This document shows positions 14,397 through 18,680 of a DNA stretch of 64,000 nucleotides, in pieces. Numbering within the stretch: the stretch's first letter is position 1; the number at the start of each line of letters is the position of its first letter. The notes beneath the pieces were generated by a model. It made no database searches, was not told the origin of the DNA, and was given only the letters and a program-made list of their open reading frames with translations. The DNA lies in assembly GCA_963666285.1 (NCBI GenBank), contig OY762711.1. The stretch is one strand, 5' to 3'. Origin of the DNA: Sedimentisphaerales bacterium (GTDB taxonomy: Bacteria > Planctomycetota > Phycisphaerae > Sedimentisphaerales > SM23-30). The position numbers and the translations under genes are program-made.

Positions 14397-16943
14397 CTAA
14401 TGTACTTCCTGAACCGTTGTTTCGTATTTCACGCCTTCCGGCACTGGAACAGAAACATTGACCGTTACGCCATGTTCTCCAGAAGTAACAGTAGCAGAAT
14501 CCACGGCAACAAATGAAGTGTAGTTGCTCATAAGGTTATAGCTCAACGCAGTAGTAAGAATAGCGTTTGAAAGATCTGTTGGACCGCCGGTATTGAGCAA
14601 ATTATTCAATATCTCAATCTTTTTACGAGCCCAGATGGCAGCAATGCCGTCATGACGAGTGTTGTCACTAAATTCAGCAGGAACGGTATATTGCTGATCC
14701 AGGCTGCCAACCTTACCACCAACTGTTATATTGCAGTTCTTTGGACTTTTGCATCTGCCGGTAATAACTACCGCCCTGCCGGCGAATAGATCCGGTACTC
14801 TAGGCGGCCATACTTCGGCAACTTGCATATCGCCAAAATCGATGGATATATCTGTAAGTGCAGGATGGGCAATAGTTTCATAGAAATTATCAACCGGCTC
14901 GATCGGGCTGTCATTGTGACCAATATACGAAACAGCACCCTGACCGATAGCTGCCATACGATCAAGCAGATAACGGTTAGGCGAGCTGCCAATGCCGAAG
15001 CTGAAAATACGGCTTTCACCAAGCTTTTCACTTATGGCTTTGAGAATCTCAGCTTCATTACCAATATAACCGTCAGTCATAAACGAAACGATTCTGAAGC
15101 GTTTAGGATCATGCTCAAAGTCCAGAGCTGCTTTGATACCTTCAATCATCATTGTTCCGCCGCCGCCATGAAGGCCCTCAAGATAGGTAAGCCCTTTTTC
15201 TATATTCTCTTGAGTTGCTTCGATTGGTTTGGGACCAAGCTGAGAAGCATTATTGCTGAATCTAATGATCTGGAAGCTGTCATCCGGTCCGAGGCGTTTC
15301 AGGGCACGGTTAATGGCTTTCTTTGACATTTCAATAGGAAAACCATTCATACTGCCGGAACAGTCAAGTACAAAAATCATTTCCATTGGTACCCGTTTGA
15401 GCTGGGAGATACTTTCCGGAGGATACAACATCATAGTGAAGTAACTTCCGTTATCGTCAGTAGTTGTCATAATGCCGGTTTTTACCTTATTGCCGGCAAC
15501 CTTATAACGAAGTACAAAATCCTTGTTTGGGATAGTATCGTTACGGGCGATCTGCACATTTACCCGGCTGTCAGAGTTGTATTTTTTCTCAATTATATGG
15601 CTGCTGCATTCCAGATCTTCAATCTTTACGCCGGCGTCAATATTAACTGCGAGCGAGATATCATGTCCGCTTCGCTGGTCCGGTTTGAGGTAATGGACCT
15701 CGGTTGACTGTCCGCTGGTACCGTCTGGTGTGCCGTGGGCAACTGCCGCTATGCCGTCAGTTGTATGCGGAGGGTTAAAACGCGGTCCTACAACCATTGG
15801 AAAGACAAATTCATACCAGCCGTCTTTATAAGCCAGGGTATTGAAATATTTTATATTGATATCGATAGCTTTGCCCGGCTCTATATTGGCAACTTTTTGG
15901 GTGAAGATATTAGGCCGCTGCTGGGTTAGCAGGCTGGCCACATGGCCCCGGCTGCGGGCGGCTTCGTATATTTGTTTGGCTTCTTCCTTTTCACGGATAA
16001 CGCCTCGGATTGTGCGGTCACCAACGGTCATAAGAAAGTCGTTTACCGCAGCATTCTGAGGCAGCGGAAAGACATAGCGTGCCTCTATCTTGGTATCGTA
16101 TGGATTGTGAAACTGCTGAACAACATTTACGGTTGCTATATAACCGGCGATATTGCCTGTAACATCTGTATGCTTAAGCGGTAACGGCACTTCCTCGGGA
16201 TTATCAGGCAGCTTAACAACACAACAGCCGCTGACAGGAGTATTATCGTCTACCGGCACTACCGATTTGGCAGTATCAACTTTAGCTATAACCCATAGCT
16301 CATCGGCATTGAAGTTGTTCAAAACAATTTGATTATTGATTGGTGCTTTCCCAAAAGAATACATCTGAGCCATCACACCACCATCCATACCACTAACGTC
16401 ATACCCAACAATACCCTGGCCAGCTGCGATAGGTTTTGCACTCCCCTTTTCAACAGTTGGATATTCTATTTTTTCTACTGGAGGAATTAGATCTTTATCA
16501 ACGGCCATTAAGTGCATTGTAACATTATGGTCCGCATTTCTGGATTTTTCATGCTGAATCTGCCATAACAACGCCTGCGAATACATATTTCTAAGGTATT
16601 TTGCCTGTTCGTTATAAGGGTCTACAGAAAGCAAACGATCTATAGTGTCAATAGCAGCTTGAAACCTTCTTTGCTCTGCAAACTTATTAGCAGTATGGAA
16701 TAAAGTACTTATAACCTGTACTTCTTGAGCTGCTTCTCTAGCTGAATCTCTGGTTTTATCTATTGCTTCAGTATCAGAACTCCCATGTTCATCAGAGGTG
16801 CCTCCCTGATAAGCAGCAGTATCTCCAGGGGCTGAGACGGTACTATTAATATCATTGCCACAGCCTTGAATAAGCAAGAATGCAGGTATTGCCAGCAATG
16901 ATAATAATAATCCAGTAAAAATTGATTTTCTTAGGTTAAACAT
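14397..16943 (-). CDS. VIT + vWA domain lipoprotein (paralog A) with N-terminal TPR-like segment
   Basis: Lipobox IQGC, TPR-like helix pair (FQAAIDTIDRLLSVDPYN), VIT domain, and MIDAS motif DCSGSM/TDG. Confidence 0.88.
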   Translation of the reverse strand: MFNLRKSIFTGLLLSLLAIPAFLLIQGCGNDINSTVSAPGDTAAYQGGTSDEHGSSDTEAIDKTRDSAREAAQEVQVISTLFHTANKFAEQRRFQAAIDTIDRLLSVDPYNEQAKYLRNMYSQALLWQIQHEKSRNADHNVTMHLMAVDKDLIPPVEKIEYPTVEKGSAKPIAAGQGIVGYDVSGMDGGVMAQMYSFGKAPINNQIVLNNFNADELWVIAKVDTAKSVVPVDDNTPVSGCCVVKLPDNPEEVPLPLKHTDVTGNIAGYIATVNVVQQFHNPYDTKIEARYVFPLPQNAAVNDFLMTVGDRTIRGVIREKEEAKQIYEAARSRGHVASLLTQQRPNIFTQKVANIEPGKAIDINIKYFNTLAYKDGWYEFVFPMVVGPRFNPPHTTDGIAAVAHGTPDGTSGQSTEVHYLKPDQRSGHDISLAVNIDAGVKIEDLECSSHIIEKKYNSDSRVNVQIARNDTIPNKDFVLRYKVAGNKVKTGIMTTTDDNGSYFTMMLYPPESISQLKRVPMEMIFVLDCSGSMNGFPIEMSKKAINRALKRLGPDDSFQIIRFSNNASQLGPKPIEATQENIEKGLTYLEGLHGGGGTMMIEGIKAALDFEHDPKRFRIVSFMTDGYIGNEAEILKAISEKLGESRIFSFGIGSSPNRYLLDRMAAIGQGAVSYIGHNDSPIEPVDNFYETIAHPALTDISIDFGDMQVAEVWPPRVPDLFAGRAVVITGRCKSPKNCNITVGGKVGSLDQQYTVPAEFSDNTRHDGIAAIWARKKIEILNNLLNTGGPTDLSNAILTTALSYNLMSNYTSFVAVDSATVTSGEHGVTVNVSVPVPEGVKYETTVQEVH

Positions 16944-16991: not shown

Positions 16992-17449
16992 TTAGTCACG
17001 ATCGGTAAGCCGGTAAGTCATATCAGCTTTTACCTTGTTTCCTTTGGCATCTGCGATGACAACCGGTGTAATTTCGAACTCCGGAGTCTGGTCGCCGGAA
17101 ATCATAAAGTGGAGGCGGGCACATCTGAACTTACCGGAAGGTAATGATTTATCGAGATTGAAAGCGGCAAGTATGATTCTGCCATGATTAAGAGCCTTTG
17201 GGTCGTAATAGCCCGGAGCTTTGAAAGCCTCGCAGTCGCCGCCTTCAACGCCGGAAAGCTTTGCAATACCTGATGTTACCTTAAGTTCGAACTGGTATGC
17301 CGCGATAGACTTATCAGCGGAATCGATTATGATATCGACAGGTACAAACCTGACATTGCTGAAGTCAGCCTGCGGTTCAAGAGCTTTGCCGAAACTGTAT
17401 GTAAGTGCGGTAAAACAAAGGGTTAATATAATAATTGTCATTTTGTTCT
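16992..17449 (-). CDS. Secreted cohesin-like beta-sandwich protein, exon 2 (spliced CDS = 18172-18169 + 17449-16992, 153 aa)
   Basis: Joining ATGA to AG AAC AAA ATG gives in-frame MKNKMTIIILTLCF..., a good signal peptide. The mature part has a cohesin-like pattern: VPVDIII..IAAYQFEL...GRIILAAF...ARLHF...IADAKGNKV. Confidence 0.65.
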
Positions 17450-18168
17450 GTCGAGTAGGCATGTCGCCTCCTTTCATTAATTTAACAAATTCTGAGTTTC
17501 ATTATATTTTGTGCAAGGAAACGCATGCCCCTCACAGAACCGGACTTGAAGATTTCCCTCATCCGGCTCTTCATTAATGCTCACTTTGACGGCTACATAA
17601 GGCAAAGTAATGTGCCTTGTAGAAGTCTCCGATAGAAGACGCTGTGGAACGTTCATGGTTTCTTCCAGTTCAGTGCCTGGCCAATATCCTGTTTCGCCTT
17701 TACACATTAATGCTGACCCCTTCGAGTGCCTCAAACTTCGAAACTCAACAGGCATTACCCTGTTTACTCCTCTACTATGAGTCAGTCCGACTACCAAAAT
17801 GCCATACGGCCGCGTCACGGTTTCAGCTCCTTGGCCGCTTCCTTTCGGAGCACTTCGGTTCTCCCAAGTTCCAATGCAGTCAGTTCGTTTGCCCGCTACG
17901 GACTCAGACCCCGGCTCGTCGATATATGCTCGCCGTATTTCGCATATATCGATATTGGCTTCAGGCATATGAAAACCCTGGCCCGGATGCGATAAGGAAT
18001 AATTTCGGGGCTCAACACCTTCACTTGCGTTGTGGCTGACAAACTCCTTTCCCGGGGCTTCGTACAGTTCGTTACCTCTCTGCACGCCCGGTGCTGTAAT
18101 GGGCGGGTGGCTAGCCCTTACCCATGCCGGATTGGCCGGCTTGACTACATTAGCTTCGCTTGGCGCTC
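17450..18168 (-). mobile_element. Group II intron lacking a reverse-transcriptase ORF (719 nt), inserted after nucleotide +4 of the host CDS
   Basis: Domain V GAGCCGGATGAGGGAAATCTTCAAGTCCGGTTC (17537-17569, AGC triad). Domain VI stem with bulged A at 17456 and 3' end CCTACTCGAC. 5' end GAGCG. EBS1 UCAUAU (17967-17972) in a CAGG/CCTG loop complements exon end ATATGA. Removal restores the reading frame. Confidence 0.9.
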
Positions 18169-18188
18169 TCATATTATTATCCTTCAAT

Positions 18189-18680
18189 TTAATTTATAAT
18201 CATTGCCAGCTGAGAGTTTAACCGGGCAGCAGCCGCCTGGTCCAGGTTGTTTATCTCAACTGCTTTATTGGCAACTATTTGCACATCAGTAATAGAAAGA
18301 TTATTGTCGTTGTTATAATCCCATTTCCGGTCGTATATGCCCTTGTCACGGATATGGATAGCGAGAGTCATAGCATCGAGTATATCTACACTTCCATCGC
18401 GGTTAACATCCTGCGGGGCAAAGGTTTGGGAATTGTGTAATACAAAGAAAGCCGATATAGCGACAAGCACAATTGCCGCGGCATATCGTAAATAATGTAT
18501 TAGAGGAGATTTACGCCGTTTGTTGAAAGCATCAAAATGAGCTCTGGCTCCCTCTAAAACAGCTCTATCAACATCAAGCGGAAGTTGAGAATCAGTTGTA
18601 AACTCTTTTTTCAATTCGAGTTGCAACTCATCTGATAGTTCCGGGATATCATCAAAATTGTTAATATTATTGTTATCCAT
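18189..18680 (-). CDS. Putative anti-sigma factor: acidic cytoplasmic N-terminus, one TM helix, extracytoplasmic dockerin type I-like domain
   Basis: Directly follows the ECF sigma. TM segment YAAAIVLVAISAFFVL. Paired loops DVNRDGSVDILDA and DYNNDNNLSITDV. Confidence 0.7.
   Translation of the reverse strand: MDNNNINNFDDIPELSDELQLELKKEFTTDSQLPLDVDRAVLEGARAHFDAFNKRRKSPLIHYLRYAAAIVLVAISAFFVLHNSQTFAPQDVNRDGSVDILDAMTLAIHIRDKGIYDRKWDYNNDNNLSITDVQIVANKAVEINNLDQAAAARLNSQLAMIIN

Follow-up and report, generated by a model that had tools for sequence, protein, structure and literature searches.

A reading frame open from the host start codon through an ORF-less group II intron of a Sedimentisphaerales bacterium

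Introduction

Group II introns specialised for initiation or termination codons are known from class IIB1 (CL1), with Avi.groEL and EcKTE56.groEL as examples (Michel et al. 2007; PMC12584367, in part). As far as the passages of that source go, this clade has a 300–700 nt insertion in subdomain Ia, a reverse transcriptase (RT) with an endonuclease domain in EcKTE56.groEL, and proteobacterial housekeeping genes as hosts (PMC12584367). Here, we analysed a 64,000-nucleotide stretch of a Sedimentisphaerales bacterium (GenBank assembly GCA_963666285.1, contig OY762711.1), referred to as the window, in which a 719-nt ORF-less group II intron (one without an open reading frame, ORF, for an intron-encoded protein, IEP) sits directly behind a start codon and is itself open to translation, in the phase of that start codon, for almost its whole length.

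In organellar group II introns, the ORF can be fused to the 5' exon and encode an RT/maturase, the fusion being processed, and bacterial IEPs lie inside intron loops with ribosome-binding sites of their own (sections of PMC3073962). Bacterial and phage group I introns carry an in-frame stop just past the 5' splice site that keeps ribosomes out, and the accepted view in the same sections is that self-splicing introns have to exclude ribosomes, usually through such an early in-frame stop (PMC3073962). ORF-less bacterial group II introns can be served in trans by a related IEP, as described in parts of the sources on Trichodesmium dnaN/RIR (PMC12584367) and Thermosynechococcus (PMC2882425). Full-text literature searches returned no host-phased frame through a bacterial group II intron and no start signals in domain VI, although Michel 2007 and Simon 2008 may mention them.

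Results

The host frame is open through the intron

The following features, all on the minus strand, define the frame.

17450..18168, minus strand: ORF-less group II intron, 719 nt (GAGCG...CUACUCGAC), from Rfam RF02005 and RF00029, with boundaries from eight copies and relatives
18169..18172, minus strand: host start codon ATG and A, the last four bases of exon 1, from the flanks of the eight copies and from relatives that read ATGA and then GUGCG
17477..18172, minus strand: host-phased open frame, 231 codons and the stop TAA (17479-17477), from the ORF list, translation, stop counts and shuffles
17475..17479, minus strand: TAATG, in which the TAA that closes the long frame shares its last A with an exon-2-phased ATG, from the sequence and the ORF list
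16992..17449, minus strand: exon 2, encoding a small secreted protein with the signal peptide NKMTIIILTLCFTALTYSFG; 151 in-phase codons past the junction

The original prediction held that 231 stop-free codons lead from the host ATG at 18172 to the TAA at 17479-17477, and both the ORF list and the translation confirmed this: the minus-strand ORF 17477..18187 has 236 aa counted from a TTG and 231 codons counted from the ATG, with a product that reads MRAPSEANVV...EEPDEGNLQVRFCEG...TQNLLN*. The proposed overlap of the TAA with an exon-2-phased ATG was likewise present in the sequence; this ATG (17477-17475) heads ORF 16992..17477, which runs on into exon 2, and a TGA stands in frame directly after the TAA (17476-17474). 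Within the intron, the host frame contains no stop, compared with 15 and 20 stops in the other sense frames and 6, 7 and 9 in the antisense frames. Dinucleotide-preserving shuffles of the intron were never stop-free (0/60,000; mean 11.35 stops), and the Poisson estimate derived from them, 1.2e-5, agrees with the rough figure of ~1e-5 offered before, although the ancestral sequence considered below raises the true chance level.

The frame runs continuously from the 5' exon into the intron, as exon-fused intron ORFs do, but its 231-aa product matched no Pfam family, so the RT/maturase of such ORFs was not found in it, in line with the earlier statement that the peptide lacks an RT motif. Judged from the letters of this intron and of the relatives compared below, the open frame is genuine and stands out statistically, and it is part of a pattern seen repeatedly, and conserved, among ORF-less members of a start-codon-homing family.

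In public databases, the frame of the 719-nt intron is annotated as a hypothetical protein, with seven members in its own cluster (P0003), and related hypothetical-protein entries number more than 250 (127–405 aa). Dozens of database clusters now hold such frames, and because intron frames are annotated in this way, the annotated starts of the host genes behind them are probably wrong.

The intron occupies start codons in eight near-identical copies

17899..18135, minus strand: ribozyme domains I to III/IV core, Rfam group-II-D1D4-6 (RF02005), E = 4e-32
17537..17570, minus strand: domain V, within the RF00029 match, a segment conserved across all relatives
18180..18185, minus strand: host Shine-Dalgarno (SD)-like GAAGGA, 7 nt before the host ATG, with a similar motif and distance in the eight copies

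The domain I–IV core scored 115.9 bits against the group-II-D1D4-6 covariance model (gathering threshold 49), and the domain V/VI model RF00029 matched 17571-17450 at 55.5 bits. The intron ends agree with GUGYG...AY boundaries, the 3' end being ...CGAC and the 5' end GAGCG here and GUGCG or GUGUG in relatives; the U2A variant at the 5' end is common to all copies in the source genome (G000). Since relatives in other genomes begin GUGCG right behind ATG-A, the splice sites fall after 18169 (5') and after 17450 (3'). With these limits the intron spans 18168-17450, which moves the start assumed earlier (18169) by one base and leaves the phase relations noted with it unaffected.

The source genome contains eight ORF-less copies, 99–100% identical and at different start codons, together with a decayed copy (L009, 648 nt), two full-length copies (1,929 nt) and two fragments; the full-length copies are 86% identical to the ORF-less intron over domain I (n = 2, source genome). 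Insertion is at the initiation codon in all eight copies (ATG-A and then the intron), with flanks that read purine-rich SD (GGA/GAAGG), 6–9 nt, T-ATG-A, intron and then A(R). The phase of the ATG-A continues into an ORF of 84–513 codons in seven of the eight, and the hosts include a prepilin start (ATG-A, A, then KRGFTLIELLVV) and several signal peptides, while the eighth copy and the decayed copy have only 3 and 4 codons downstream, in purine-rich repeats that mimic a start site. All eight carry the open frame and differ from one another at only three sites in total, and they were therefore counted as a single evolutionary event. Their near-identity at different start codons suggests, indirectly, that the intron may be active in splicing or mobility.

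The 3' half of the 719-type intron has close relatives only in the source genome among 25 family genomes, and a search of 401 genomes of the phylum gave four others that match in domain V only. Five metagenome-assembled genomes (MAGs) with family members yielded contig-end fragments only.

Three intron copies in the source genome have no gene behind them. Purine- or AT-rich repeats with SD-like runs surround copy L002 (G000:C1:5266365-5267090), the decayed copy L009 (C1:1613555-1614209) and the flanks of a full-length copy (C1:5397267); these repeats contain ATGA or AAGA with no gene behind them (3–4 codons), and L009 and the full-length copy have the 5' flank ...gaatgctgaattATGA in common. 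Such sites may be decoy or ancestral homing sites. Copies also occur in pairs at the starts of neighbouring genes, 3 kb apart (C1:3630861-3631588 and 3633819-3634543) and 7 kb apart (C1:5266365-5267090 and 5273516-5274243).

Domain VI carries an in-phase start codon and a Shine-Dalgarno sequence

17453..17534, minus strand: domain VI, a long hairpin hiding the SD and ATG, with a bulged branch A at 17456, 7 nt before the 3' splice site (predicted fold)
17515..17523, minus strand: anti-SD strand CGUUUCCUU, paired with the intron SD in the minimum-free-energy structure
17467..17473, minus strand: intron-borne SD, AAGGAGG, from the sequence
17460..17462, minus strand: domain VI ATG at -13 to -11 relative to the 3' splice site; it has the phase of exon 2 and is kept in all relatives examined

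The last 87 nt of the intron are predicted to fold at -29.6 kcal/mol (z = -5.08; 0/200 shuffles fold as well). In this fold, a stem GAGGGGCAUG/CAUGCCU[A]CUC contains the ATG and the bulged A at -7, matching the group II branch A that lies 7–8 nt before the 3' splice site in domain VI, and an upper stem pairs CGUUUCCUU with AAGGAGGCG, leaving the TAATG at the 3' edge of the loop. Both the SD and the ATG are thus paired in the predicted hairpin, which may occlude the downstream start.

Cistrons in bacterial operons can be translationally coupled by termination and reinitiation at overlapping or adjacent stop and start codons such as ATGA and TAATG. The ATG at 17462 lies 15 nt beyond the TAATG, in the arrangement AAGGAGG-N4-ATG, so that a stop near a start and an SD before it are both present, as in coupled cistrons. 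A start at this ATG would yield MPTRQ-NKM..., compared with MK-NKM... from the spliced host start.

A contig pattern scan (14 fixed bases and one Y), for which ~2,200 chance matches are expected, gave 80 loci with flanks, of which 23 were kept after a domain V filter and the rest dropped. All of these filtered 3' ends (23/23, from many phyla) have a purine-rich SD-like motif 5–10 nt before the ATG at -13; their exon 2 begins with A and, where read, resembles MK and a signal peptide. Domain VI of three relatives (L195, L256 and L260) is predicted to fold like that of the window's intron.

The frame is retained in relatives of the 719-nt intron

Comparison with relatives indicates that the open frame is not a one-off accident. 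P0004, from another metagenome, encodes 230 aa with 163/231 residues identical to the window frame (71%) and one one-codon gap, and it shares both ends with it (MRAP... at the start and ...SLLN at the end). When substitutions were placed at random in the window frame down to ~71% amino-acid identity, it was still open in ~2% of trials. Among 52 related database ORFs (P0004-P0055), 39 reach 190 aa or more; these begin with an ATG at intron nt 104, end at the domain VI stop of the window's frame and are 70–97% identical to their consensus. At the DNA level, members found by a frame-blind scan are open from nt 104 as well, over 210 codons in L260 (718 nt) and 182 codons in L244. Where members have the nt-104 frame, a host-phase stop at nt 87 immediately precedes a GGAGG and the ATG at 104; the 719-nt/P0004 form looks like this long frame, probably shifted into the phase of the host ATG by small indels.

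A 98% variant in the sequencing runs of organism B has eight differing sites, none of which creates a stop, as expected for so few changes. Synonymous changes were not in significant excess in this variant (5/8 at third codon positions, binomial P ~0.09, calculated by hand), and its lean towards third positions is contradicted by the even count in the second lineage described next.

A second ORF-less lineage shows the same architecture

Four loci without an early stop belong to a second ORF-less lineage, the L195 type, which measures ~655 nt and is matched by the two Rfam families of the window's intron. L195, L230 and L256 each interrupt a different host gene; one of these hosts has, by eye, a GDP-mannose dehydratase-like start (KALITGITGQDGSYLAE) and one a signal peptide. 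The host-phased frame here spans 214–215 codons and ends ...AAGGAGGUGGCUAUGAGC..., where its TGA overlaps the domain VI ATG (ATGA), an ATG that shares the phase of exon 2. The phase in which domain V is read differs from that in the window's intron, which makes the L195-type frame an independent solution. The three introns are 91–94% identical with a single 3-nt indel, and polymorphic stops number 0 in the host frame as against 6 and 5 in the others; random placement of the same substitutions keeps all three frames open with P = 0.05. All L195-type 5' ends of at least 300 nt are open (4/4), and the variable columns are spread 25/26/27 over codon positions 1/2/3.

Searching the protein database with the L195 ORF gave 71 matches, 53 of them covering at least 94% of the query (208–231 aa), at identities from 92% down to 40%; source records include Omnitrophota, Elusimicrobia, Dehalococcoidia and a Syntrophoarchaeum MAG. 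Among 16 L195-type sequences fetched, 12 start MSAP and the others MSVP or MGAP or are cut short, and an ending (R/K)R(W/R)L is kept in 15 (the exception is P0295). Because predicted proteins are open by construction, the neutral expectation was simulated for frames visible to a protein search, counting as partial those of at least 117 aa. The simulated whole-to-partial ratio is 1:18 at 68% mean amino-acid identity, 1:55 at 54% and below 1:350 at 43%; among matches of at most 63% identity we counted 40 whole and 16 partial. Whole frames so far above the neutral ratios argue that some selection keeps the L195-type frame free of stops and frameshifts, and the lack of codon-position bias argues that this selection is not on the peptide; hence the act of translation, rather than the peptide, appears to be under selection. 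A search for the L195 ORF in five further genomes and in 401 Omnitrophota genomes gave 2 and 3 weak or full-length-type matches, respectively, and no ORF-less copies.

The frame is closed in most of the family

Most members of the intron family do not share the open frame, which weighs against a selected role for it. Close start-codon homologues with frequent in-frame stops, named in the original prediction as the finding that would speak against it, are numerous: the decayed copy L009 has nine host-phase stops, the first at nt 12, and the full-length copies of the source genome also meet their first at nt 12. First stops lie at nt 102 in three full-length G037 copies, at 150 in G054 and at 87 in G004; the ORF-less G004 intron (732 nt), itself at a start codon, carries 10 in-frame stops, L239 (742 nt) and L260 (718 nt) carry 13 each in the host phase, and L203, L232 and L258, further ORF-less relatives at start codons, carry in-frame stops as well. 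The proposed check on the conservation of openness and junction, with indels in multiples of three, thus had a mixed outcome that leans towards conservation: P0004 and the L195 type keep the whole frame, about 39 of the 52 ORFs keep its 3' part and its stop, and many start-codon relatives have stops instead.

In metagenomes, loci were collected with a pattern for the intron 5' end that includes ATGA and is blind to downstream sequence; because ATGA was required, this sample tests downstream frames only and not the association with start codons. A host-phase stop occurs within 213 nt in 46/49 unselected loci of at least 460 nt. The 78 loci with 300 nt or more comprise 17 whose first stop falls within 20 nt, 51 where it falls at nt 21–110, 6 where it falls at nt 111–296 and 4 with no stop. 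Early stops in most relatives fit the rule, as sections of PMC3073962 give it, that keeps ribosomes out of self-splicing introns. Rare-stop sites in domains I–III are not depleted in any frame among 26 diverse relatives (32/32/36 over the three frames), and 18 closer relatives show weak depletion only (9/14/23), on which we did not rely.

The evidence for retention has limits of its own. The database entries are predicted proteins and hence open by construction, and the eight genomic copies are one recent burst that gives no independent support. L009 and the full-length copies have only 2–3 host-phase stops in their first 425 nt, so openness is partly inherited and the true chance level lies well above 1e-5; given these nearest relatives, the step to full openness in the window's intron is, on their sequences, a small one, which limits the claim. 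RNA runs containing 4–7% of the sampled words gave contigs that match conserved segments of relatives; neither a spliced nor an unspliced junction of this locus appeared among them, and they do not bear on expression. Moreover, translation of the ribozyme should hinder its folding, so that read-through would compete with the splicing needed for mobility.

Full-length relatives and the intron-encoded protein

17654..17656, minus strand: ATG in the domain IV stub (ELEETMNVPQ...) that shares the phase of the long frame and probably belongs to what is left of the IEP start region

The two full-length copies of the source genome (G000:C1:5395339-5397267, minus strand, and G000:C1:910721-912649, plus strand; IEP L010:115-1443:-) encode an identical 443-aa RT/maturase (TIGR04416, 338.7 bits; RVT_1 the only Pfam family). 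No endonuclease family was found in this IEP with Pfam and NCBIfam, and sequence matches in the PDB gave no IEP class. By eye, the domain IV stub within the long frame probably resembles the IEP start KETELEMQYTEIG of a full-length copy. In the full-length copies of the source genome and in G037, G054 and G018, the IEP lies in another phase, the host phase containing 51–57 stops, and the stop-to-stop IEP frame of 24 full-length relatives with an RT does not open before nt 361–595.

The catalytic YADD box reads YADN in the IEP of the source genome and YADD in G037, G054 and G018, a change that may have inactivated the RT while the maturase was kept; it contrasts with the near-identity of the eight ORF-less and two full-length copies. 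In two Omnitrophota loci, L333 (G724:C52:1-1995) and L334 (G487:C55:17483-19376), the IEP frame is open upstream through domains I–III, over 566 and 522 aa to the contig edge, with the 5' ends missing; there, translation beginning at the host start codon may yield a fused IEP, as it does in yeast mitochondrial introns.

Six full-length loci (L191, L199, L224, L226, L227 and L242) contain a 131-codon frame that starts at an ATG at intron nt 104 (nt 104-497), preceded by a GGAGG in a GUAA-capped hairpin of domain I, and ends at a TGA 8–20 nt past the IEP start codon in 6/6. The host phase of these loci stops at nt 87, just before the GGAGG. In a frame-blind sample, 119 or more open codons follow the ATG at nt 104 in 16/18 of the sequences that have one. 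The 131-codon frame may be part of a chain of coupled frames leading to the IEP.

Host gene and neighbourhood

The host protein encoded by exon 2 matched no Pfam family; by eye it resembles a cohesin. A dockerin type I domain protein lies upstream (18192-18680, minus strand; PF00404, 31.7 bits) and a VIT-VWA protein downstream (14400-16943, minus strand).

Discussion

We lean towards the reading that the 231-codon frame is kept open for through-translation in a start-codon-homing ORF-less group II intron, with a coupled restart at its end. On unspliced mRNA, ribosomes would load at the SD and ATG of the host gene, cross and unwind the whole ribozyme while making a peptide without a function of its own, and terminate at the UAA-UGA in the domain VI loop. 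The arriving ribosome would melt the hairpin that hides the AAGGAGG and the in-phase AUGs and would restart there by termination-reinitiation, so that the host protein would be made with MPTRQ or MKGGDMPTRQ (window) or MSSTRQ (L195 type) in place of MK and without splicing; no untranslated, polarity-prone gap would be left on the unspliced mRNA. Ahead of a signal peptide or prepilin leader, this N-terminal change should be harmless. The idea that ribosomes traverse the unspliced intron was already part of the original prediction; it gains from the frames kept in P0004, the nt-104 ORFs and the L195 type and loses from the many closed relatives. On this comparative evidence, traversal, melting of domain VI, reinitiation, avoidance of polarity and antagonism to splicing are plausible inferences, and so is their being the selected benefit.

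A chance-open frame in a stop-poor ancestral phase, carried into eight copies by recent retrohoming and having no role, we regard as unlikely. It would account for the three differing sites among the copies, for the two or three early host-phase stops of L009 and the full-length copies, which few changes would remove, for the in-frame stops in most of the family, ORF-less members at start codons included, and for the absence of a clear rare-stop depletion across the wider family. It sits poorly, however, with the shuffles, none of which was open, with the survival of P0004 whole and with an in-frame gap where ~2% was expected, with a second lineage that keeps the same architecture down to 40% identity in another domain V phase, and with frames that end exactly at the domain VI SD/ATG in both lineages. 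Alternatively, the frame could be open for the sake of the RNA, translation shielding a ~700-nt intron from Rho-dependent termination or RNase or timing its folding, with the host protein started by independent 30S binding at the domain VI SD/AUG or after splicing; this we think slightly less likely still. The conservation in P0004, the nt-104 ORFs and the L195 type applies to it equally, and the domain VI SD and AUG, present in 23/23 filtered relatives whether the host frame is open or not, do not depend on the long frame. Protection of the RNA would not, however, require a stop right at the start signals, as is seen in the TAATG with SD and ATG 15 nt on and in the ATGA of the L195 type, nor does it explain the RRWL-type ending kept in 15/16 fetched sequences, or an SD and AUG held in a predicted -29.6 kcal/mol stem that a terminating ribosome would open.

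The original prediction had offered as its alternative a relic of an IEP whose translation formerly began, in frame, at the host start; yeast mitochondrial introns would be the parallel, and the RT would have been deleted later. The 3' third of the frame does cross the apparent IEP-start remnant, and the L333/L334 frames are open upstream through domains I–III, so an exon-fused IEP may exist elsewhere in the family. For the 719-type lineage this origin found no support and is very improbable: the IEP is in another phase in the source genome, G037, G054 and G018, its frame opens only at nt 361–595 in the 24 full-length relatives, the peptide has no Pfam match, and a relic would be expected to decay, yet the frame is kept at 40–71% identity. 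We give scarcely any credence to a functional protein of ~230 aa overprinted on the ribozyme, although the frame is long, conserved and publicly called a hypothetical protein; its conserved residues coincide with conserved ribozyme segments while the rest varies freely, its variable columns fall evenly over the codon positions, the two lineages read domain V in different phases, and no Pfam family was found.

Through-translation with a coupled restart could be one case of a wider habit. It is possible, though we consider it doubtful, that the whole start-codon-homing lineage lives by a ribosome relay, inserting behind ATG-A so as to use the translation start of the host. The host phase of full-length members would stop at ~nt 87 by the GGAGG and the 131-codon frame would lead from ATG 104 to the TGA past the IEP ATG, or, in some Omnitrophota relatives, the IEP frame would be fused upstream instead; after the IEP, the domain VI SD and AUG would return ribosomes to the host gene. 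ORF-less derivatives would have collapsed this chain into one frame through the ribozyme. If so, splicing would be needed for mobility only and not for host expression, an unrecognised way for an intron to be harmless.

In the window's lineage, ribosomes seem to be invited through the whole ribozyme and returned at an intron-borne start codon. [quoted passage not shown] It differs in that its 719 nt in all, with an Rfam domain I match from intron nt 34, show no subdomain Ia insertion, in that the related IEP has 443 aa and RVT_1 only, with no endonuclease, and in that the hosts are mostly secreted or prepilin-type genes of other phyla; on these three grounds it is not a member of that clade. 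The passages of PMC12584367 mention neither a through-frame nor start signals in domain VI. Like trans-served ORF-less introns, this one is a short derivative multiplied beside full-length relatives (two, 86% identical over domain I), although a host-phased frame and intron-borne start signals go unmentioned for the former in those passages of PMC12584367 and the IEP here is YADN. With organellar ORFs it has in common a frame continuous from the upstream exon into the intron, but there is no RT here, the exon contributes only ATG-A, and the host is bacterial. As for group I introns with early stops, coupled transcription and translation would drive ribosomes into the ribozyme, and most relatives here follow the early-stop rule, whereas the window's intron and the L195 type do the opposite and are open throughout. 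The stop/start arrangement is like that of coupled cistrons, in the stop overlapping or near a start and the SD before the restart codon, and the predicted structure around the restart site may add to the likeness; yet here the upstream 'gene' is a whole self-splicing ribozyme without a product function, and the restart codon lies inside the branch-point domain, where its use would rebuild the interrupted host gene.

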